From the IMG/VR virus record IMGVR_UViG_2693429524_000019, positions 1-32,064 of that record: 32,064 bases of DNA, one strand, 5' to 3'. The translations under genes were made by a program, and so were the position numbers. Positions within the stretch are counted from its first letter, which is position 1; each line of letters opens with the position of its first letter. Of this stretch, positions 1 to 28,854 are shown piece after piece. Under the pieces are notes generated by a model. The model worked only from the letters and a program-made list of their open reading frames with translations. It was not told the origin of the DNA and searched no databases. The DNA comes from a virus (lineage: Duplodnaviria; Heunggongvirae; Uroviricota; Caudoviricetes).

Positions 1-84
1 ATGGCGGGTTATTTGTCCTGGTTATTCCCCCGTTGTAAAATCTCTCCTAAACTTAACGGTACGGCACCACACTTCGGGGATGAA

Positions 85-276
85 ATGTTCGCGCTGGTAC
101 TTTTTGTTTGCTACCTGGATGGCGGTTGTGAAGATATTGTTGTGGATGTCTACAACACGGAACAGCAGTGTCTTCATTCTATGAGCGATCAACGGATCCG
201 CCAGGGCGGTTGTTTTCCGATTGAGGATTTTATAGATGGTTTCTGGCGACCTGCGCAGGAGTACGGTGATTTTTAA
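85..276 (+). CDS. yebW: small uncharacterized host protein, YebW-like (63 aa from the internal ATG; the ORF-track N-terminal extension from position 1 is probably not real)
   Basis: 63-aa product MFALVLFVCYLDGGCEDIVV...GDF; length and position convergent with pphA match the yebW-pphA neighbourhood of E. coli as I recall it; sequence identity not verified. Confidence 0.4.
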   Translation: MFALVLFVCYLDGGCEDIVVDVYNTEQQCLHSMSDQRIRQGGCFPIEDFIDGFWRPAQEYGDF

Positions 277-933
277 TTATTGCAATTGCACAAGAGTCAG
301 TTCGCCCCCAAAGACAGCACCGGTATCAATATAATGCAGGTTGCCAATATCCACGCGATGTCGCAACGGTGTATGACCAAACCAGAAATGATCAGCACCT
401 GTAATTCCCTGCCCTTTTGGGCGTTCACCTAATCGTGAGCGGCTCCACAAGACCTGATGCAAATCAACGTCCTTTTGCCATTCATAAACATCATCTGGAT
501 AATCGGCATGAGCAATAACATGTTTGCCGGTGCGGCTGTGTACTTCAAGAATAAAGGGCAAATGCTGACATTTTTCCAGCGCCGTTTTCGCTTGTTTCTG
601 TTGATTATCTGCCAGCGCAATAAACCAGTCGCCGCCATTCATCAACCACAAAGACATCTGCTGGGATGCCAGCGCATCCATCGCCATCTGTTCATGATTG
701 CCTCTTACCGCACGAACCCAATGTTGTTCCAGTAACTGCAGACAACGTAAACTTTGCGGCCCACGATCGATAACGTCTCCCACTGAGATAAGTAAATCTC
801 GCCACGGATCAAAACGACAATGCCATAATTTGCGGCGCAACTGCTCAAGACAACCGTGTATATCGCCAGAAAGCCAGATATGTCGCCATTGATGACCCGC
901 AATTCTCTGATAAACGGGCGCAGGCTGTTTCAT
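277..933 (-). CDS. pphA: serine/threonine protein phosphatase 1 (PrpA), calcineurin-like metallophosphatase
   Basis: 218-aa product from the second codon (ATG at 933; the track start at 936 is TTG); N-terminus MKQPAPVYQRIAGHQWRHIWLSGDIHG and GDxxDRG / GNHE metallophosphatase motifs match recalled PrpA. Confidence 0.8.
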   Translation of the reverse strand: MKQPAPVYQRIAGHQWRHIWLSGDIHGCLEQLRRKLWHCRFDPWRDLLISVGDVIDRGPQSLRCLQLLEQHWVRAVRGNHEQMAMDALASQQMSLWLMNGGDWFIALADNQQKQAKTALEKCQHLPFILEVHSRTGKHVIAHADYPDDVYEWQKDVDLHQVLWSRSRLGERPKGQGITGADHFWFGHTPLRHRVDIGNLHYIDTGAVFGGELTLVQLQ

Positions 934-1067
934 CAATATTTTCCTCCCGCGCTAAAGATCACATAATCTTAACAAGAATGTTAAAAAACGCTGGACTCAG
1001 ACAGTAGAGTGTGTGTTATGGTTGACTATAAAGTCAGCGAAGGAAATGCTTCTGGCTTTTAACAGAT

Positions 1068-1092
1068 AAAAAGAGACCGAACACGATTCCTG
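1068..1092 (-). ncRNA. sdsR: 3'-terminal fragment of sRNA SdsR (RyeB): distal terminator half plus U-tract; probable prophage attachment core
   Basis: minus strand reads CAGGAATCGTGTTCGGTCTCTTTTT, matching the recalled 3' end of SdsR; similarity decays immediately upstream (GACGAAAA versus recalled GACCGAATA); lies ~135 bp from the pphA start as expected for the sdsR locus. Confidence 0.45.
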
Positions 1093-1397
1093 TTTTCGTC
1101 AACAAACGACAAAATCCTTTAGAATTAATGTGTTAAATAAATTTATGCTCATCTTTTAATCCCTAACACATACCATTACATATTAATACATTCAATTAGT
1201 TACCATTTTTTTCGAGTTTTTTAGAGAAATTTTCGGGAATATTTCAGGTCAATCCATGCATACACAAGCAATTCCTGTATTGAATAATTCCGTAGCAATT
1301 ATGTAAAATCACCTTCGGCTGATTTTCATTCAAACTCGCGCTATCGAACGTCCATCAGCCAGCCGTGGCACGTTCTTGCATACGACGTGCTGCGGTT
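1093..1397. other. AT-rich non-coding prophage arm between att core and invertase gene (probable attP arm with integrase/IHF arm sites)
   Basis: ~300 bp, very AT-rich, no ORF above 20 codons, sits at the tail-fibre end of the prophage where lambdoid P-arms lie. Confidence 0.3.
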
Positions 1398-1987
1398 TCA
1401 TTTATCTCCGACCGGAAACTTCTTATACAAAGTCGATACGCCAACATCATAGATGATCTCCACATTCTGGCGATGAACTCCTGATGCAATTAGTCGCCCG
1501 GCCTGCGCCCATTGTTCTGATGAAAGTTTGGGACGGCGACCGCCAATTCGTCCCTGTGCGCGAGCAGCTTCCAGTCCAGCTTTTGTTCGTTCAACAATCA
1601 GTTCACGCTCCATTTCAGCCAGGGCACCCATGACATGAAAAAAGAAACGGCCATTGGGGTGCTGGTATCAATACTGTCAGTCAGGCTTCGGAAATTCACG
1701 CCACGCTGACGCAACTCTTCTATCAGCGTAACAAGATGCCGCATACTGCGCCCCAACCTGTCCAGCTTCCAGACAACCAGAGTGTCTCCTGCCGATAGTG
1801 TCCTGAGCAGTTTTTTAAGCCCCGGTCTGTCGGACTTAGTGCCACTGATTTTATCCTCAAAAACCCGCTCACATCCCGCGCAGTTCAGTGCATCACGTTG
1901 CAGATCGGTGTTCTGGTCATTTGTTGATACGCGTACATAGCCAATAAGTATGTTAAATCCCCCTGGTAAAAGCAGGAATGATGCCAT
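1398..1987 (-). pseudogene. pin: DNA invertase of the Pin/Gin/Hin serine recombinase family, disrupted
   Basis: two ORF fragments (1598..1987 and 1398..1631) together align to recalled Pin/Gin: ..IGYVRVSTNDQNTDLQR.. then ..MGALAEMERELIVERT..GRIGGRRPKL..; canonical start codon is ATA (the peptide reads ILIGYVRV); a one-base loss near 1648-1651 (ATGGCC where ATGGGCC is expected) shifts the frame between the catalytic and HTH domains. Confidence 0.8.
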
Positions 1988-2005
1988 TTGCTTGTTATTT
2001 CTGCA

Positions 2006-2031
2006 TTTTCATAAACGTTGGTTTGGGAGAA
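2006..2031. repeat. candidate invertase crossover site A (gix/pix-like), adjacent to pin
   Basis: TTTTCATAAACGTTGGTTTGGGAGAA resembles recalled gix/hix consensus (AAACC-NN-GGTTT core); shares core TTGGTTT with site B in inverted orientation. Confidence 0.4.
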
Positions 2032-2487
2032 GGTGCTCCAGCTATTGGCGTTCCGTTCTTCTGGCCGTCCGCTGCAATGCCAAATACTGTAATCGACAGC
2101 TGGTCCAGTATGGTGTTTTTGAAGTTCAACGGGGCGAAATTTTCTGCCTCTGATTACCCTGTGCTGGCAAAAGTGTTTCCTTCGCTGGTATTACCTGAAG
2201 CCCGCGGTGATTTCATTCGTATCTGGGATGATGGCCGTGGTGTTGATAGTGGCCGTGCGTTACTTTCCGCGCAATCAGACGATTTCAAAACGCACGAGCA
2301 TAAATTTTTAGGGCTAAATGGAAGTGGCAGTAATGTAGTGTTTGGCACCGTTTCGAATGCTTCTCCATTATATACCAGCGGCGTTAGTCAGCCGGGTGGA
2401 AGTGCTTTGCCCGCTTTTCAAAACCCAGGCGGTACTGAAACGCGTCCCCGTAACATCGCATTCAACTTTTTAGTAAGGGCTAAATAA
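2021..2487 (+). CDS. alternative tail-fibre C-terminal segment (Sv'), silent orientation, no own start
   Basis: reading frame continuous from crossover core; encodes GAPAIGVPFFWPSAAMPNTVIDSWSSMVFLKFNGAKF...GDFIRIWDDGRGVDSGRALLSAQ, a conserved tail-fibre C-terminus of the Mu S / P1 S / e14 StfE type. Confidence 0.6.
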
Positions 2488-3080
2488 TGAAACCTGTTTT
2501 TGATGAAAATGGGCTGGCTACAGTGCCGGGCGATATGCGTTGTTTTTATTATGATGCAGTAACGTATGAATATACGGGCTGGTCTGATGAATATATTAAT
2601 ACTGGCGTAAGTATGCCCGCCTGTTCCACTGGTATTGACCCTGGCGAATACATTCCGGGGAAAGTGGCAGTATTTACGGGTAAGGGATGGAGCCATGAAG
2701 AAGACCACCGCAATGAGACTGTTTACTCAATCGAAAATGGCGCAGCTGTTACAGTGGATTATATCGGTGCCATCAAAGACGGTTATGTCACGCTTTCACC
2801 GTTAACGCCATACGATAAATGGGATGGTGAGAAATGGGTGACCGATACTGAGGCACAGCATAGCGCTGCAGTAGACGCGGCAGAAGCACAGCGTCAGTCA
2901 CTGATTGATGCTGCAATGGCTTCCATCAGTCTGATTCAGCTGAAATTGCAGGCCGCACGTAAACTGACGCAGACAGAAACAACCCGACTTAACGCCGTGC
3001 TGGATTACATTGACGCGGTGACTGCAACAGATACCAGCACCGCGCCGGATGTCATCTTGCCTGAACTGCCGGAGGCGTAG
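2487..3080 (+). CDS. tail fibre assembly protein (U'/Tfa), silent orientation
   Basis: 197 aa; ATG overlaps the Sv' stop (TAATG); C-terminal ..LNAVLDYIDAVTATDTSTAPDVILPELP is a typical Tfa C-terminus; convergent with the other tfa. Confidence 0.7.
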   Translation: MKPVFDENGLATVPGDMRCFYYDAVTYEYTGWSDEYINTGVSMPACSTGIDPGEYIPGKVAVFTGKGWSHEEDHRNETVYSIENGAAVTVDYIGAIKDGYVTLSPLTPYDKWDGEKWVTDTEAQHSAAVDAAEAQRQSLIDAAMASISLIQLKLQAARKLTQTETTRLNAVLDYIDAVTATDTSTAPDVILPELPEA

Positions 3081-3489
3081 GCCATTCAATATCTGGAGCA
3101 CTGGAGGTATCAACCAGTTCCAGTGCGTCCAGATAATCCAGCCACAAATTATATTGCGCCAGTTCCTCACCTTTCAGACGACCAATAGCTGCTTTACCTG
3201 GCCATTGCCTGTTATTCATGTGCTCATTGGCAGTATCTATGCGCCGCTGACGCTCGTATTCTGCCATCTTTATCAGTTCTTCAGGTGCCAGTGGCGGAAT
3301 ATCACTCCATACGGGATAACCATCATCACCCGCAATCCTCATTTTTCCCTCCGGTGGCTTCTGAAATGCAACAAAAGTCTCTTCATCAACTTCCACGCCT
3401 TTTTCGGGCCACATCCCTGCCGCCTCATAGTCTGCCTGCATTGCTAATGGATAAAATGCGTTAGTTACTGCGTCGTATAAATATTTCAT
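3052..3489 (-). CDS. tail fibre assembly protein (U/Tfa), expressed orientation
   Basis: 145 aa, SD AGGAAG upstream, immediately follows tail-fibre gene; C-terminus ..NLWLDYLDALELVDTSSAPDIEWPTPP is paralogous to the U' C-terminus. Confidence 0.7.
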   Translation of the reverse strand: MKYLYDAVTNAFYPLAMQADYEAAGMWPEKGVEVDEETFVAFQKPPEGKMRIAGDDGYPVWSDIPPLAPEELIKMAEYERQRRIDTANEHMNNRQWPGKAAIGRLKGEELAQYNLWLDYLDALELVDTSSAPDIEWPTPPAVQAR

Positions 3490-3491
3490 TT

Positions 3492-4640
3492 TTATCTTCC
3501 TATTGCTATCCAGTTGGCACCAGCTCCTTTGACAGCCCCCTGACGCGATGACGCGAGATAAAAACCATAGTTATTTATCTTACTTGTCGAGAATGCCGGG
3601 CAGTCTTCTGCACTGGTTGGCGTATCGAAAGAACATGCGACGCGATAATCATCGGTAAAAGGTATCGGGAAATTAACAGCAGTTGGGTAGCCAGCAGAGC
3701 CTGAAATGTTCGTACCAAACTGCATGATGGTGCCGTCAGGAAATTTCACCCAGCCAGGACCTGATGTGAAATTAGCCATTGTCGGAACCTGATTAGCCCC
3801 ATTTCCCAGGTTTGCTGTTGCTGCTGAGCCAAGCCCTAAATTTGCTCGTGCGTCGGCAGCTGTGGTCGCGCCGGTTCCGCCCTGACTAAGCGCTAGAGCC
3901 ATTGGCGTTCCGATATTGTTAAGTACGCCCCATGCACCACTATCATTCACAAACAGCCGATAGTTATCGCTTTGTGAAGTAATGTATGTGTCAACTAAGC
4001 CTTGTACTAAACGATTGACGCCAAGGTTACTACGCGCTTCTGCCAGAGAAGTCCCGCCAGTTCCCCCCTTAGACAGAGGTACTGTGTTCTCCGTTGCCAC
4101 ATCTCCCAGACCAAGATTACTACGCGCGCTGGCAGCATCTTTTGCACCTGTACCGCCAGATGATAATTGCAGTGCAATAGTCCCTGCCTGGGGACTTATT
4201 GAATATGCCCCCCATCCATCATTCTGCACAAAAACATAAGATTTTTTGTTTGGTGACCAAATGCGTGTTTCGTTAGTGTCCTGATCACATCTTTCTAAAC
4301 CAAGATTTTCGAGAGCCGTTTTCACCGTGCCGTCCGATTTGATATCGCCAAACGGATTCTTGCGGCTCAGGTATTCAACAGCAAACCCCGATCCCAGCAA
4401 TTCAACAAAACCGGACAGATCACCATTATCAAGCACATCCCGTTGCGTTTTATCACTTACAAACTGGGCCAGAGCTGCAGCAATAAAGCTGGCCTGCCGA
4501 ATAACCTTATTGACTTGCGCACTGGATGCTTTACCTGCTGTAAATCCGGATAAAAGCGCAGGCAACGCTTCCCATTCCTCCTGCGACATAACATTGGCAT
4601 TTTTACCCGTTGCGAATGCTTTAAAGTCATTTTTTGCCAT
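3492..4640 (-). CDS. tail fibre protein (S): constant N-terminal part plus variable C-terminal part
   Basis: 382 aa from ATG at 4640 (TGATG coupling with upstream gene); three repeats of LSxGGTG..(A/S)xxARxNLGLG; last gene of the baseplate operon before the tfa. Confidence 0.75.
   Translation of the reverse strand: MAKNDFKAFATGKNANVMSQEEWEALPALLSGFTAGKASSAQVNKVIRQASFIAAALAQFVSDKTQRDVLDNGDLSGFVELLGSGFAVEYLSRKNPFGDIKSDGTVKTALENLGLERCDQDTNETRIWSPNKKSYVFVQNDGWGAYSISPQAGTIALQLSSGGTGAKDAASARSNLGLGDVATENTVPLSKGGTGGTSLAEARSNLGVNRLVQGLVDTYITSQSDNYRLFVNDSGAWGVLNNIGTPMALALSQGGTGATTAADARANLGLGSAATANLGNGANQVPTMANFTSGPGWVKFPDGTIMQFGTNISGSAGYPTAVNFPIPFTDDYRVACSFDTPTSAEDCPAFSTSKINNYGFYLASSRQGAVKGAGANWIAIGR
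4290..4316. repeat. candidate invertase crossover site B inside the tail-fibre gene
   Basis: plus strand TCTTTCTAAACCAAGATTTTCGAGAG; reverse complement carries the same TTGGTTT core as site A; encodes ..ENLGLER.. in S, frame-compatible with ..NVGLGEG.. at site A. Confidence 0.4.
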
Positions 4641-5320
4641 CAGAGTAATACTCCCCATGCCCCTACATCAAAACCACTGATAAATTCGTTATCCATATCA
4701 AAACCAAAAAATTTTGAGCCTTCCGATGGGGTTTCCACCGAAGGTGTTTCAATGCCACCCGCCCATACCCCGGCGGCTTTTACTGTGAGATACCCCTGTT
4801 TAATTGCCGCAATTAACTCACGCGATACATCTGAAATATCAGTATCAGGAAAGACCCAGACCGATATCGTCATGTCCTGGTTATCGACTATCTGCATTCG
4901 CAGCCCGGATCCTGCTGTTGCAGCGTCAAGAATTGCCGGAAGCGAATCATTCCGTCCATCCCAGTTATTAATCGCAATCTTCGCTTTAAGAATGACACGA
5001 TAAGTTTCATCGCTGAGATACATGTATCCTGAATCAGGATCGTATGGTCCCTGCCATACCCCCTGATCATATCCAAGCCCGTCGGTATCCCAGCTGAAAT
5101 AGACACCTGAGATAGGCTGGCTGACAACACGGCTACGTCCGATCCACAATCCAAGAATGTCAAGTTGCACACCAACCGCAGAGTCAATATCAAATGCAGT
5201 AATCAGCCCTCTGGTGGCAGCCGCAACATCAATAAGTGGCCGGGTCATCAGATCAACATGCGCAAGAAATTTAGGTTTGGTGGCGTGGTAGTTCGTGATT
5301 AGTTCGGTGTATTTGCTCAT
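4640..5320 (-). CDS. tail/baseplate protein (P2 gpI / Mu gp48-like)
   Basis: 226 aa, ATGA overlap with the J-like gene upstream, position between baseplate J and tail fibre. Confidence 0.55.
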   Translation of the reverse strand: MSKYTELITNYHATKPKFLAHVDLMTRPLIDVAAATRGLITAFDIDSAVGVQLDILGLWIGRSRVVSQPISGVYFSWDTDGLGYDQGVWQGPYDPDSGYMYLSDETYRVILKAKIAINNWDGRNDSLPAILDAATAGSGLRMQIVDNQDMTISVWVFPDTDISDVSRELIAAIKQGYLTVKAAGVWAGGIETPSVETPSEGSKFFGFDMDNEFISGFDVGAWGVLL

Positions 5321-13431: not shown

Positions 13432-14577
13432 TTAGCGAACAACGTTAATCTGTACGTCAGCGTAATGAACCGCGCCTGCAAGTTTTATTGCAGCCTGAAT
13501 CACCGGAGCCTTACGGGCTTCACGTTCTGATTGTGCCTGTTCATCCAGCGGCTGGGCGTATACGTAATAACCTTTGGGCAGTGTGTCACCTGATGACAAC
13601 TGACCAAGGTCGCCCCCGTTCCATACGCCCGAAGCAATCAGTCCATTCTGAACGGTCTGATCCAGTGATTTTTCAACATTTGATAACAGTCGGGTAATAC
13701 CGGCTTCAGTCTGGGGAACTTTCGTGGTGCTGGTATAAAGCAGGTTATAGAGGTTGGTCTGCACATAATTCTGTAACCAGTCCAGGCCGTGGCGTTCATC
13801 AAAGAAATCGCCGTTAGCCATCACTCCCTGCTGGAGGATAGCTGTATCATTCTGGTAGTACACGAACACATTGCAGTTTTTTGCATCAAGTGCCGATGCC
13901 TGGCTGACTGTCAGTGTTTCATACCCAACACCCGGCTCCTGCTTAAACTTGAGCGTAATCGCGGTATTACTGCCATTGAAATTAACCGTGAATGCCCGGC
14001 CAAATGCAGATAACGCAGCGTATTTATTACCCGATGAATATTGAATAAAACTGCGTGAATATCCGGCGGTTTTCAGTTTTGATGCCAAATCATCACTGGA
14101 TGCAGTCTGCAGGCATTTCTCATCGCTTGTCGTAATCGCCAGAATACGGCTTACAGAAGAGGATTCGATCGCCGCAGCCACTTTCAGCCAGTCTGCATCC
14201 GGAATATCTTCATCGTCTGCAATCCCCAGCCCATACCATGAAGTATAATCGAGCATGGCATTCACAGCCTGCTCCAGCGTCTCAGTCGTGGCCTGTTCGC
14301 TGTCTCCCCTCGTTTTCACCCAACGACCAACAAAAACCTCCTGAGGTTTCGGTGATTGTGAGAAAAACACCTGCGCAGCCTTATATTCTGGTGATTCCAC
14401 GCCAAAATCTTTTCCAATATCTTCCGCGGCAGAATAACGGCGAATGCGCTCACTTACCGGAATGATTGTGGACGGGCCGAGAATGAGTAATGCACCAAAA
14501 TTTCGCCCTGATGCTGCACGCGGCGACATGATCACATCAACATTAACAACGTTTGATACAGGCAAGCCCTGTGCCAT
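13432..14577 (-). CDS. contractile tail sheath protein
   Basis: 381 aa, size and position upstream of the tube gene. Confidence 0.65.
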
Positions 14578-14580
14578 AGC

Positions 14581-15189
14581 TTAATCTCCGAAAAAGATGA
14601 CTGGTGCTTCCACCAGCGATTTAATACCGTACTCGCGCACAACCTTCCGGCGCAGACGCACCGTCATATCGTAGCGGCGGACCCATTGCTGATTAATAAG
14701 TTCAGGGAAGGGAGTCAGACCTGTGTAATCGCCAAGAGACAGCCCCAGCGCATTCAGTGCTGCGTTGTTCTGCGGTACAGATATACCGTCACGAAACCGG
14801 GACGCATACACCATCCCCGCCGGACCATAAAACGAAGCCATACACTCAATCGTTTCATGCCGCCAGAGCTGAGAGCCATCATCGGTCTGTCTGGTGAATG
14901 CCGGACTGTCATCACCTGACCATCCGATAACCCCAAACGCACACCAGTTCGTTTCAACCGGTAGCAGTGGCGGCTGCTCTTTCTGCCAGCGCGGGCGAAC
15001 CATCCCGGCAGACAGACCGGAAACGTTACGCATCCACTGGCTTAACAGCCTGTCGAGCGCTTCGTCATAATCCGGATCGCCACTGGTTGGTATTAACCAT
15101 CCGCGCTCTGTGCTGGTGTTATTGCTCAACCGGAATTCCCCCATCAAACGGCAGCAACTCACAATGCGCCTGAACGAATCCGGCACCAT
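14581..15189 (-). CDS. tail completion / sheath-terminator-like protein
   Basis: 202 aa; true start uncertain (overlaps upstream gene by 71 nt if ATG at 15189 is used). Confidence 0.35.
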   Translation of the reverse strand: MVPDSFRRIVSCCRLMGEFRLSNNTSTERGWLIPTSGDPDYDEALDRLLSQWMRNVSGLSAGMVRPRWQKEQPPLLPVETNWCAFGVIGWSGDDSPAFTRQTDDGSQLWRHETIECMASFYGPAGMVYASRFRDGISVPQNNAALNALGLSLGDYTGLTPFPELINQQWVRRYDMTVRLRRKVVREYGIKSLVEAPVIFFGD

Positions 15190-15508
15190 ACGCTGTATAT
15201 GGGTCGACGAAAGTCACACGATAATCACGGCCCTGATACGTCACGATATCGGCATCACGGCCAGTCTGTCCCTGCGTCAGTCGCTCAGTCGTCACAATCA
15301 GAATTGCACCGCTGATCACCTGCCCTGCCTGCATACGGCGGTTTTCCAGAGAGCGATCAACAGTTACGACTCCGGCAAACTGCTTTTTAACTTCGCTGTC
15401 GCTGCCGATCCCGTCCTCATCCACCGTTTGCACTCGGCATGTTACCCACAAATTGAAGTCGCAAAAATCGGGGTCAAAAAGCACATCTGTTACATCAAGA
15501 GTCGGCAT
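15119..15508 (-). CDS. head-tail connector (neck) protein
   Basis: 129 aa, position between head and tail modules. Confidence 0.35.
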   Translation of the reverse strand: MPTLDVTDVLFDPDFCDFNLWVTCRVQTVDEDGIGSDSEVKKQFAGVVTVDRSLENRRMQAGQVISGAILIVTTERLTQGQTGRDADIVTYQGRDYRVTFVDPYTAYGAGFVQAHCELLPFDGGIPVEQ

Positions 15509-16049
15509 TTTTATCCCTCACAACATGGGTAATCGCTCTGCGATATTGCCCGGTGTCGATTAGCGGTTTCACCAGATCGGTTCCAGGAGACTCACCAGCA
15601 GCGCGCCGCGCAAGTTCCGCTTTTGCCCCTTTGCGCCCTCGACGTGCACGGGCTTCAACAGTGCTGTCAGCAAGCGGCGTAAAGCCGGTAATAGTCATGT
15701 AACACCTGACGCCATTAGCGGCCAGCGTTCCGGCACGGTTGAGTGCGCGTTCCGCACCCGACGCATTACCATCAAGCGCAGCCTGCGCCGCTGCTTTGAG
15801 CTGCGGCACTGTCTGTCCCTCTACCGATTTAACGCCGGGGGTCAGGTGCGGGCGTGGGGGGATGTTTTGCGCTGGTGAGCCGTATTCGTTGACATAGCCG
15901 ATCCCGGCATTACCAAACGGAACATCTTCACGCTCGCTGTCTTCCGAAGGGATGCCGACCAGCACATCCTTTTTGGTTAGCGACCTGAGCGCATCCAGAA
16001 TGGCCTGAGCGTTATCCACCCTCGTTGTTACACCGCTTTTGAAGCTCAT
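15495..16049 (-). CDS. head-tail joining / head completion protein
   Basis: 184 aa, overlaps neighbours. Confidence 0.35.
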
Positions 16050-25662: not shown

Positions 25663-26214
25663 TTAAAGCTGCATCAGCCTTTCCACCAGTTTATCTCTGC
25701 GAACAACAAACCAACCATTGGCTCTCGCCAGTTCCAGCCATGACTCAAGGGAAATAACAATATCATCATCCCGCAACTGAATTGTGGAAACAGTGACACC
25801 GCCTCGCTGATAACAGAGAACTCGCGTGTCGTAACTTTTCTGGCATGAAGCTGGCGCTGACAGATCCTTTTGTCTGAAATAGCAGTCTTCCAGTTTTTCG
25901 AACACTTCCCACGCCTGATCGGTTTCCAGCATTTTGGCGTGGCGGGCTGCTCCGCGTTCTGTCCAGAGTATAAGCGAGCGGGTTTTGGGCGAAATTTGTA
26001 ACTGACTTACTGTCAGTCGCAAATTTTTAAGCTCCTCGCCCATAACCTTAAAAAAATGTTTACCTTCAATAAAACGCACAGAGTTGCGCTTATGATTTTG
26101 CTGGATACTGTTTACATCCGCGCCATAGAGGTGCGCCAATAGTTCTGTGGTAATAACTGGGATCTGATTATGGGTAATTGGGGAAAGGTTTTCGACAGAA
26201 ATTTGAGTCGTCAT
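25663..26214 (-). CDS. ORF6N/antirepressor-like DNA-binding protein (moron between Q and lysis genes)
   Basis: 183 aa, SD GAGGG; N-terminal ..ITTELLAHLYGADVNSIQQNHKRNSVRFIEGKHFFKV.. resembles ORF6N-type phage antirepressor N-domains as recalled. Confidence 0.4.
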   Translation of the reverse strand: MTTQISVENLSPITHNQIPVITTELLAHLYGADVNSIQQNHKRNSVRFIEGKHFFKVMGEELKNLRLTVSQLQISPKTRSLILWTERGAARHAKMLETDQAWEVFEKLEDCYFRQKDLSAPASCQKSYDTRVLCYQRGGVTVSTIQLRDDDIVISLESWLELARANGWFVVRRDKLVERLMQL

Positions 26215-26375
26215 GATAACGCCCTCTGGTTGATGAATTTAACTATCACCACCGTCAGGTTCCAATCATTGGGTGGTGAGACGTACAGGGTTGGAACTAC
26301 CGGATCAACCAACCGGCGAGCCTTTCGGCTCCCCCATACGCCCCACCATAATTCAGATGTGCGTGTGCTTACGAC

Positions 26376-26400
26376 AATAAAAAACACGCTCGCGGCGTGT
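26376..26400 (-). terminator. intrinsic terminator ~90 bp downstream of Q (tR'-like candidate)
   Basis: minus strand ACACGC-CGCGA-GCGTGT followed by TTTTTATT. Confidence 0.5.
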
Positions 26401-26488
26401 ATCTGTCGCGGTTGAATATCCGGGGTTCCAATCCCGACGCCAGATTTTGCTGGCGCGTGAGGAATATAGCCCCGGATAACAGATTGAG

Positions 26489-28488: not shown

Positions 28489-28644
28489 TTACTCCTCAGA
28501 TTCGTAAGCTGTGAAGACAGCGACCTCCGTCTGGCCGGTACGGATTCGTACCTCGCAGAGGTCTTTCCTCGTTACCAGTGCCGTCGCTATGACGGTTAAA
28601 CAGATGACGATCAGGGCGATTAACATCGCCTTTTGCTGCTTCAT
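28489..28644 (-). CDS. hokD: Hok/Gef family type I membrane toxin, HokD (RelF)-like
   Basis: 51 aa MKQQKAMLIALIVICLTVIATALVTRKDLCEVRIRTGQTEVAVFTAYESEE, near-identical to recalled HokD; SD AAGGAGAAG upstream. Confidence 0.8.
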   Translation of the reverse strand: MKQQKAMLIALIVICLTVIATALVTRKDLCEVRIRTGQTEVAVFTAYESEE

Positions 28645-28854
28645 AGCCTGCTTCTCCTTGCCTTTCGGCACGTAAGAGGCTAACCTACATTTGTGAGACA
28701 TAGATTGGGCCTCAGATTAATGTTAAGCGTCCTGCAAGACGCGTAATGTTAACTGGGGCTTTTCTCTATCTGCCGTTGGTGTTCATGCCTGAGGCAGATA
28801 GCCTCAAGCACCCGCAGCAATTCTACTTAACTCTCCTTTTCCCGCAAACCGTTT

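Follow-up and report, generated by a model that had tools for sequence, protein, structure and literature searches.

The small RNA SdsR (RyeB) acts as a regulator of tolC, mutS and porin genes; without RyeA, its antisense antagonist, it is toxic. Insertions at the ryeA/ryeB locus were reportedly described by Balbontin, Figueroa-Bossi, Casadesus and Bossi in 2008 (J Bacteriol 190:4075). Two papers that both cite this work (PMC7380047; PMC3603311) agree with the sequence-only reading of the DNA studied here, which had called the locus a known insertion hot spot, and ryeB is named in one of them as a known phage target (PMC3603311). The closest described element, the Salmonella phage phiW104, is summarised as integrating in the last 23 bp of ryeB, with ryeA expression going down and ryeB expression going up (PMC7380047). 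The RyeB site has also been recorded in island-finding surveys (PMC10111431), one entry of which, Cfr111.52.RyeB, resembles our element, going by its name, in having RyeB as its target and in falling into a similar size class (52 kb in Citrobacter versus ~42 kb here). Phage integration at the 3' end of ryeB has been published since 2008, and the junction that we describe is of this documented kind. On the side of the host, most transcription of pphA in K-12 starts at the sdsR promoter and reads through the sdsR terminator (PMC6610125).

The window, by which we mean the whole stretch of 32,064 nucleotides that was analysed, resembles the phiW104 and other ryeA/ryeB elements, as far as the summary describes them (PMC7380047), in its target, the insertion point lying within the last ~23 bp of ryeB, in the terminator and internal to ryeA, and in the expected outcome, by which ryeB would be kept and ryeA would be cut from its promoter. 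It differs from the summarised phiW104 in having an E. coli host and in being a mosaic of Rac-like early genes and myovirus-type tail genes, and the E. coli neighbour pphA depends on sdsR read-through (PMC6610125), a consequence that does not come up in the descriptions of phiW104 consulted. We are highly confident that positions 1083–1093 of the window are a recombinant junction, formed when a temperate phage of ~42 kb integrated into the sdsR terminator. The features on which the analysis builds are the following, with the start of ryeA mapped from a published transcription start (PMC6610125):

85–276, plus strand: yebW (DUF1482), chromosomal flank; Pfam DUF1482 with 122 bits, yebW in RefSeq genomes.
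277–936, minus strand: pphA, protein serine/threonine phosphatase 1, chromosomal flank; Metallophos domain, pphA in all matching genomes.
1030–1093, plus strand: the 5' 64 nt of ryeA (sraC); K-12 start at position 1567 of the K-12 locus (L002), offset 537 from the shared core.
1068–1093, minus strand: the native 3'-terminal 26 nt of sdsR/ryeB, identical to nt 79–104 of the K-12 gene.
1083–1093, no strand: crossover core ACGATTCCTGT, the sole stretch that attB, attP and the two junctions have in common.
1094–1397, no strand: phage attachment arm, int-distal; 64% A+T, starting with the imperfect stem-arm copy TTTCGTCAAC.
1398–1987, minus strand: pin-type serine invertase gene; 1-bp deletion near 1650–1652 relative to the intact pinE (PEC422).
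1094–32,064, no strand: prophage body, myovirus-type, continuing beyond the window; from the ORF list, Rfam, Pfam and synteny with annotated prophages.
Predicted attP across the core: ...GACCGAATACGATTCCTGTTTTCGTC...
Predicted attB across the core: ...GACCGAACACGATTCCTGTATTCGGTC...
Predicted integrase-side junction: AATTAAAAAAAGACCGAATACGATTCCTGTATTCGGTCCAGGG

The minus strand at 1068–1092 reads CAGGAATCGTGTTCGGTCTCTTTTT, an exact 25-mer that occurs once in the window; no further copies were found there at up to three mismatches, and 100 shuffles gave 0 matches. It is the reverse complement of positions 1605–1629 of the K-12 locus, annotated as the sdsR 3' end (b4433), so that the initial recognition of this stretch as the terminal ~25 nt of SdsR rests on an exact and unique match. 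Identity to K-12 reaches position 1093, one base past the 25-mer, with 26 SdsR nucleotides kept, and leftward of this position collinearity with K-12 is unbroken for more than 1 kb via the ryeA promoter, pphA and yebW. At 1094 the two sequences part, with TTTCGTCAAC in the window and ATTCGGTCCA in K-12, after which no similarity is left. This agrees with two further observations of the sequence-only reading, namely that the sequence upstream in the sense of sdsR is merely SdsR-like ('GACGAAAA versus GACCGAATA') and that it passes into AT-rich phage DNA and then into invertase and tail-fibre genes: A+T is 52% in pphA versus 64% in 1094–1397, which is followed by the pin-type gene.

What is left of sdsR here, cut from the gene body, is the terminator loop with the 3' half of its stem and the U-tract. 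Neither SdsR nor RyeA is reported in the window by Rfam at the gathering threshold; below it, SdsR (RF00111) aligns at 1068–1146 with 19.6 bits (E = 0.53, gathering score 38), convincingly only over the loop and the 3' half of the terminator, and RyeA (RF00101) aligns at 1064–1152 with 24.8 bits versus a gathering score of 37, with 63 model positions absent. The scores stay below threshold because only a 26-nt fragment of sdsR remains. The window has this fragment and no sdsR gene, and of ryeA it has only the first 64 nt of the K-12 transcript. The lack of an SdsR hit at the gathering threshold and the weak match in E-value mode are also what would be expected if the resemblance were due to chance or low complexity, with the shift in composition near 1094 being ordinary intergenic variation and no element boundary. 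We rejected this explanation, which we give virtually no chance of being correct, given the exact 26 nt amid extended K-12 pphA-sdsR collinearity, the outcome of the shuffles and the comparison of seven junction sequences presented below, and since 224 genomes are broken at the same point, with 42 kb of phage genes splitting the two halves of the locus.

Where within the terminator did the exchange take place? In the seven-sequence comparison, pphA-side junctions have the chromosomal variants (G, C) on the left and the phage variants (T, a missing G) on the right, and in integrase-side junctions the pattern is reversed. Since the variants are exchanged reciprocally around ACGATTCCTGT, the crossover can be placed within its 11 bp. 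They consist of the SdsR terminator loop GATTCCT (7 nt) with 2 bp on either side, and correspond to sdsR nt 79–89 out of 104, which is 16–26 nt from the 3' end, and to ryeA +54 to +64, putting the breakpoint at +64 of 272 in ryeA. This strictly duplicated core sits in ~35–40 bp of imperfect similarity between attP and attB. The proposed site-specific integration at the 3' end of an sRNA is thereby upheld, with the break inside the sdsR terminator hairpin. The idea that this junction holds the duplicated core stood in part: a core is indeed shared by both ends, but it is 11 bp in the strict sense, and the 25 nt are not a duplicate. The 26 retained nt carry the variants found in K-12 (G and C), which identifies them as the native chromosomal tail of sdsR, not a phage-borne copy. 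In lambda naming the prophage end distal to int is attR, and the junction at the tail-fibre end, at 1083–1093, is attR in this sense.

In our reading, the lambda-type tyrosine integrase of the phage recombined attP with the chromosomal attB in a conservative site-specific reaction, the Rho-independent terminator hairpin of sdsR (ryeB) serving as attB. The stem arms GACCGAAYAC and GTWTTCGGTC are likely the core-type binding sites of Int, and the loop GATTCCT is likely the overlap region. In the int-distal arm, candidate arm-type Int sites are predicted at 1211–1216 (TTCGAG) and 1229–1237 (ATTTTCGGG), and the repeat family TTCGAG..AATTTCGGG is common to the int-distal and int-side arms; by sequence pattern, candidate repeats A(A)TTTCGRG are found at -80, -70, -60 and +145 from the core. 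We infer that Int would bind at these arm repeats. An unrecombined attP is available for comparison in phage PP818812.1, deposited as a complete phage genome, which has a contiguous attP (AATTAAAAAAAGACCGAATACGATTCCTGTTTTCGTCAAC) exactly as rebuilt from the two junctions: 99% of the reconstructed attP is covered at 90.8% identity, with the core and adjacent bases as predicted, and Int of this phage is 98% identical to the lysogen Int. A related attP with an identical core (GACCGAATACGATTCCTGT) is present in Salmonella phage OK490361.1, which keeps three P-arm repeats with 10-bp phasing; the +145 repeat pattern has no matching copy in this phage.

Since the window contains neither a second core copy (at up to three mismatches) nor an integrase ORF, the far end was examined in relatives. 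The window matches the end of draft contig CYFD01000031.1 (GCA_001284405.1) at 100% identity, with one base of the contig left after it. This contig breaks off inside the prophage, and the far end of the window's own genome would presumably be as in the relatives. Three complete lysogens from different lineages, OkiPb01676, PEC422 and O55:H7 DEC5E, have the same pphA-side junction, and their prophages measure 41,719, 41,756 and 42,039 bp, respectively, from core to core. In 3/3 the same core with reciprocally exchanged flanks is found at both ends, and all three carry xis, a tyrosine integrase gene and full-length sdsR/ryeA beside yebY. The lysogen Int has 358 aa with Arm-DNA-bind_1, Phage_int_M and Phage_integrase domains, as in lambda-type enzymes, the excisionase matches the Exc family, and the integrase-side junction scores as full-length for both RNAs (SdsR 118.1 bits, RyeA 179.1 bits), the ryeA body there being promoterless. 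The suggested search for a second core and an integrase at the far end was thus answered in three complete genomes that share the junction. The expectation of an intact sdsR at the other prophage end was borne out in so far as these relatives have a full-scoring gene next to yebY, and needs correcting in that its 3' end is supplied by the phage, as a perfect 11-bp stem and a 7-U tail.

The system is organised like lambda-type (Campbell) integration into the 3' end of a tRNA, tmRNA or sRNA gene, for which the phage brings a replacement 3' end, with a tyrosine integrase that has an arm-binding N-terminal domain, an excisionase, a crossover in the loop of a symmetric stem-loop and repeated arm motifs flanking the core, and with an int-proximal junction that restores the RNA gene and a displaced 3' fragment at the other end. 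Unlike in tRNA-targeting integration of this type, the target is the terminator of an Hfq-dependent regulatory sRNA, and because ryeA runs antisense across this site, one of the two RNAs cannot be restored without disruption of the other.

The body of the prophage contains an invertible tail-fibre segment, baseplate, tail, head, terminase and lysis genes, as well as a Q-like antiterminator, C4/isrK immunity RNAs, hok/sok and the start of the early region. No long inverted repeats were found around the invertible tail-fibre segment at seed 10. In pin, the resolvase N-terminal domain and the HTH_7 domain are in two different frames, and given this frameshift the prophage copy may be decaying. 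One could go further and regard the element as a defective remnant that can no longer be excised, the sdsR-like sequence being a historical scar with no working att site. In addition to the 1-bp frameshift, such a view could draw on the break of the source contig within the prophage, which leaves int, xis and the second junction visible in relatives only, and on mosaic divergence, as no complete E. coli genome closely matches the entire window (the best one reaches 93% coverage and 95.6% identity). We consider it unlikely, as Pin is dispensable for excision and growth, the tail, baseplate, head, terminase and lysis ORFs are uninterrupted and syntenic with annotated prophages, int and xis are intact and the junctions precise in the related lysogens, and a near-identical Int and attP are found in PP818812.1, a phage genome deposited as complete. 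It bears, in any case, on present activity alone and not on the origin of the junction.

The comparison with an uninterrupted pphA-sdsR-yebY locus, suggested from the outset, could be made in 5189/5426 complete E. coli genomes, in which the site is empty, and K-12 is collinear with the window to 1093. The window-type pphA-side junction is found in 224 of the 5426 genomes and the integrase-side junction in 228, so that about 224–228 of them, or ~4%, contain this type of element. Of the 237 interrupted loci, about 228 share one integrase-side arm, and the 'hot spot' in this E. coli collection would appear to be essentially one integrase lineage.

The breakpoint falls within ryeA, RyeA is restored at neither junction (24.8 bits in the window, a promoterless body at the far end) and ryeA expression is lowered in phiW104 lysogens, according to the summary of that phage (PMC7380047). 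It could thus be argued that ryeA is the relevant target and is disrupted by the insertion, the overlap with the end of sdsR being incidental. We find this very improbable. The attP mimics the sdsR terminator, with its stem arms, loop and U-tract, and rebuilds a perfect SdsR 3' end, but it has nothing like the promoter or 5' end of ryeA, neither of which is restored by the two phage attP sequences (PP818812.1 and OK490361.1). Moreover, tyrosine integrases classically cross over in a symmetric stem-loop at the 3' end of an RNA gene (PMC3603311). The two views describe one DNA event, and the difference between them is purely one of emphasis.

With the sdsR terminator as the target, the last 26 nt of sdsR and the ryeA promoter with the first 64 nt of ryeA remain by pphA after integration, which is the junction in the window. 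This sigma-70 promoter lies just upstream of 1030, at about 990–1029, and the remainder of ryeA sits past the prophage, so that ryeA is split, a point absent from the sequence-only reading. At the far end the body of sdsR would receive the phage-supplied 3' end, with stem and U-tail restored and SdsR intact, and the body of RyeA would lose its promoter, if we extrapolate from Salmonella and K-12. Folding bears out the earlier suggestion that the SdsR terminator hairpin is not rebuilt at the window junction: the RNA there has -9.7 kcal/mol (z -0.03), and the K-12 and integrase-side copies have -17.5 kcal/mol (z about -2.6 to -2.9), that is, the hairpin is lost here and kept on the integrase side. 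As for pphA, it is co-oriented with pin and the late genes of the phage. It would lose the sigma-S promoter of sdsR, an effect likewise absent from the sequence-only reading, and would now be downstream of these genes with no SdsR-type terminator between. A simple scan predicted no terminator-like sites on the minus strand in 850–2100, from pin through the start of pphA. The same scan missed the experimentally known ryeA promoter and gave promoter-like matches at about chance level (4 versus 2.2 expected), and we relied on it solely for the absence of minus-strand terminators in this interval.

For annotation, these results mean that 1068–1093 is best labelled a 3' fragment of sdsR, displaced and lying in a prophage att junction, and not an sRNA gene, and that the prophage boundary can be placed at 1083–1093. 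For the cell, we tentatively suggest, putting the chances at slightly under even, that lysogeny rewires a stress circuit, with RyeA taken off its promoter and SdsR de-repressed, the SdsR terminator made tighter and pphA brought under phage control. All of these consequences for RyeA, SdsR and pphA expression are extrapolated from the systems described above. If they hold, the toxic, RpoS-dependent SdsR would be de-repressed by loss of the promoter of its antitoxin or sponge RyeA, and pphA would become switchable at induction, for example by Q-antiterminated late transcription. The effect on RyeA has already been reported for a Salmonella phage, as summarised (PMC7380047), and a disconnection of pphA by such insertions was not found in the literature searched. 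Because of the roles of SdsR and the dependence of pphA on sdsR read-through, the ~4% of E. coli strains with this prophage may differ in stationary-phase regulation, which is a modest point and introduces no new principle.

The 25-mer CAGGAATCGTGTTCGGTCTCTTTTT at 1068–1092 (minus strand) corresponds, as its reverse complement, to the annotated sdsR (b4433) 3' end of K-12 MG1655, and is the only copy in the window even when up to three mismatches are allowed (0 of 100 shuffles matched). The sequence-only reading had taken this stretch for the terminal ~25 nt of SdsR, and the K-12 alignment bears this out exactly. The comparison it had proposed with an uninterrupted pphA-sdsR-yebY locus is equally clear: the K-12 pphA-ryeA/sdsR-yebY locus is collinear with the window through base 1093, past which K-12 reads ATTCGGTCCAGGG and the window TTTCGTCAACAAACG, and similarity is then lost. 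Therefore, what remains of SdsR in the window is its last 26 nt, with the terminator loop, the 3' stem half and the U-tract. The start of ryeA in K-12 corresponds to window 1030, so the window also includes the promoter of ryeA and its first 64 nt. As only fragments of the two RNAs are present, SdsR and RyeA were not found by an Rfam scan of the window at the gathering threshold, and in Rfam evalue mode both appear as partial, sub-threshold matches (19.6 bits vs 38 for SdsR, 24.8 vs 37 for RyeA). The chromosomal flank carries two genes:

85–276, plus strand: yebW, E. coli chromosome
277–936, minus strand: pphA, E. coli chromosome

The window matches the end of the draft contig CYFD01000031.1 (GCA_001284405.1, 44,989 bp) at 100% identity, and this contig stops one base past the window end, in the prophage early region, probably because the sequence there recurs in further lambdoid prophages of that genome. 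For the far end we compared the whole region in three complete E. coli genomes with the window's junction (OkiPb01676, PEC422 and O55:H7 DEC5E), in which the prophage measures 41,719, 41,756 and 42,039 bp from core to core, pphA to yebY. All three end in an excisionase gene (its product matches the Exc family) and a gene for a 358-aa tyrosine integrase with lambda arm-binding, central and catalytic domains, followed ~130 bp later by the sdsR/ryeA locus, which scores as full-length SdsR (118.1 bits) and RyeA (179.1 bits). The integrase and intact sdsR that had been expected at the other prophage end are thus present in all three of the complete lysogens compared, and from these relatives we infer both in the window's own genome.

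An attP reconstructed by placing the int-side arm next to the arm in the window served as query on a phage collection. PP818812.1 contains it contiguously (99% of the query, 90.8% identity), with a core region, AATTAAAAAAAGACCGAATACGATTCCTGTTTTCGTCAAC, that matches the prediction exactly, and a related attP whose core is identical occurs in OK490361.1, a Salmonella phage record. PP818812.1 is named 'Actinobacillus phage vB_Apl-pPE4', with Actinobacillus pleuropneumoniae as listed host; since its Int shares 98% identity with that of the E. coli prophage and its attP mimics the enterobacterial sdsR terminator, this host seems questionable, or an enterobacterial contaminant was the source of the phage.

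The similarity between attB (TAAAAAGAGACCGAACACGATTCCTGTATTCGGTCC) and attP (TAAAAAAAGACCGAATACGATTCCTGTTTTCG-TCA) extends over ~35–40 bp with four informative differences. Left of ACGATTCCTGT, every pphA-side junction, including that of the window, has the attB variants, and right of it those of attP; every int-side junction has the reverse. Since the variants swap across ACGATTCCTGT in all junctions, strand exchange must have occurred, as judged from these alignments, within those 11 bp: the 7-nt loop of the terminator, GATTCCT, flanked on both sides by 2 bp of stem. Integrases aimed at RNA-gene stem-loops usually employ the loop as overlap and the stem arms as core-type sites; here the overlap region would be GATTCCT and the core-type Int sites would be the arms of the stem. 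The repeat A(A)TTTCGRG, present in three copies with 10-bp phasing in the int-side arm (−80, −70 and −60) and once in the other arm (+145, window 1229–1237), is a candidate arm-type site. OK490361.1 has the three int-side copies at the same positions and no copy fitting the pattern at +145. A second, degenerate core-like copy, AAAAAAGACCGGAATACAGAAATTC, lies outside the window in the int-side arm (43625–43650 in L001, a complete-lysogen region; 1125–1150 in L004, PP818812.1 43059–47508). Located 85 bp upstream from the attP core proper, with the int stop codon on one side and the arm repeats on the other, it could be an additional binding site for Int or the remnant of an earlier att.

The DNA from 1094 onward is prophage extending past the window end, with 64% A+T over 1094–1397. 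Its first genes are:

1398–1987, minus strand: pin-type invertase gene
1978–2487: 169-aa ORF without Pfam match, adjoining the Caudo_TAP pair
2487–3080, plus strand: Caudo_TAP tail-fibre assembly gene
3052–3489, minus strand: Caudo_TAP tail-fibre assembly gene in opposite orientation
3492–4658, minus strand: main fibre gene

After pin come the invertible tail-fibre segment, then baseplate, tail, head, terminase and lysis genes, and further on a Q-like gene, C4/isrK RNAs and hok/sok. The arrangement at 1978–3489 resembles an invertible segment; no long inverted repeats were found there at seed 10. Compared with the intact pinE of strain PEC422, pin is split by a 1-bp deletion near 1650–1652, leaving the resolvase domain (ORF 1598–1987) out of frame with HTH_7 (ORF 1398–1631). 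This may be real decay or a draft-assembly error; if real, the neighbouring tail-fibre segment would no longer be able to invert. Directly 3' of the pin stop codon, an imperfect hairpin at 1364–1399 (minus strand) partially matches the Shigella sRNA CssrB (RF02799; model positions 145–180 only, 24.2 bits vs gathering 76). It lacks a U-tract and so is not an obvious terminator; its PP818812.1 counterpart is a perfect 13-bp inverted repeat. At 26269–26469 (minus strand), C4 antisense RNA (75.6 bits), its a1/b1 target (50.1) and isrK (77.7) reach the Rfam gathering level directly upstream of an ORF6N-domain gene (25663–26214, minus strand), which together look like a P1/P7-style C4-controlled antirepressor module in a lambdoid/Rac-like prophage. 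A full-length sok antitoxin RNA (28639–28813, minus strand, 116.4 bits) belongs to a hok/sok (hokD-type) type I toxin-antitoxin locus, as annotated in related prophages. The window's Ead/Ea22-like protein has exact copies in two related prophages, L005 and L007, whose late region differs; just downstream of their Q-like gene is a gene with Pertussis_S1/Enterotoxin_a Pfam matches (15141–15866 and 13496–14221, respectively), suggestive of an ADP-ribosyltransferase-like toxin.

Among 5426 complete E. coli genomes the locus is uninterrupted in 5189, while 224 have the window-type pphA-side junction and 228 the int-side junction; one integrase lineage thus accounts for nearly every occupied site in this collection. 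The phage bodies are mosaic, and at least 80% of window 7100–32064 is covered in only 15 genomes. Phage integration in the last ~23 bp of ryeB is credited to Balbontin et al. 2008 in passages of PMC7380047, PMC3603311, PMC3333887 and PMC6610125, and an entry in PMC10111431 has RyeB already as a target name in island catalogues. The description of ryeA/ryeB as a known insertion hot spot agrees with such passages (PMC7380047, PMC3603311), and the window junction is a correct finding and one instance of a known phenomenon.

What does integration do to the locus? Folding agrees with the earlier suggestion that the SdsR terminator hairpin is not reconstituted at the window junction: RNA across it reaches −9.7 kcal/mol (z −0.03) without forming the terminator, vs an 11-bp hairpin of −17.5 kcal/mol in the K-12 and int-side copies (z −2.6 and −2.9). 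The lysogen's intact sdsR is a hybrid whose last nucleotides are phage-derived, GUAUUCGGUCUUUUUUU in place of GUGUUCGGUCUCUUUUU, which exchanges a G-U pair for A-U and makes the U-tract longer. The break in ryeA falls at +64, and the far-end body of this gene has phage DNA where the promoter was; in Salmonella, phiW104 lysogeny is described in a review passage as lowering ryeA and raising ryeB expression (PMC7380047). In K-12, pphA is expressed mainly from the sigma-S sdsR promoter via read-through of the sdsR terminator (PMC6610125). In the lysogen this promoter is 42 kb from pphA and faces the prophage at its int end. Upstream of pphA there are now pin and the phage late genes, which like pphA are on the minus strand, with no terminator-like site predicted on that strand over 850–2100 (pin through the pphA start). 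We therefore infer that the control of pphA is altered in lysogens.
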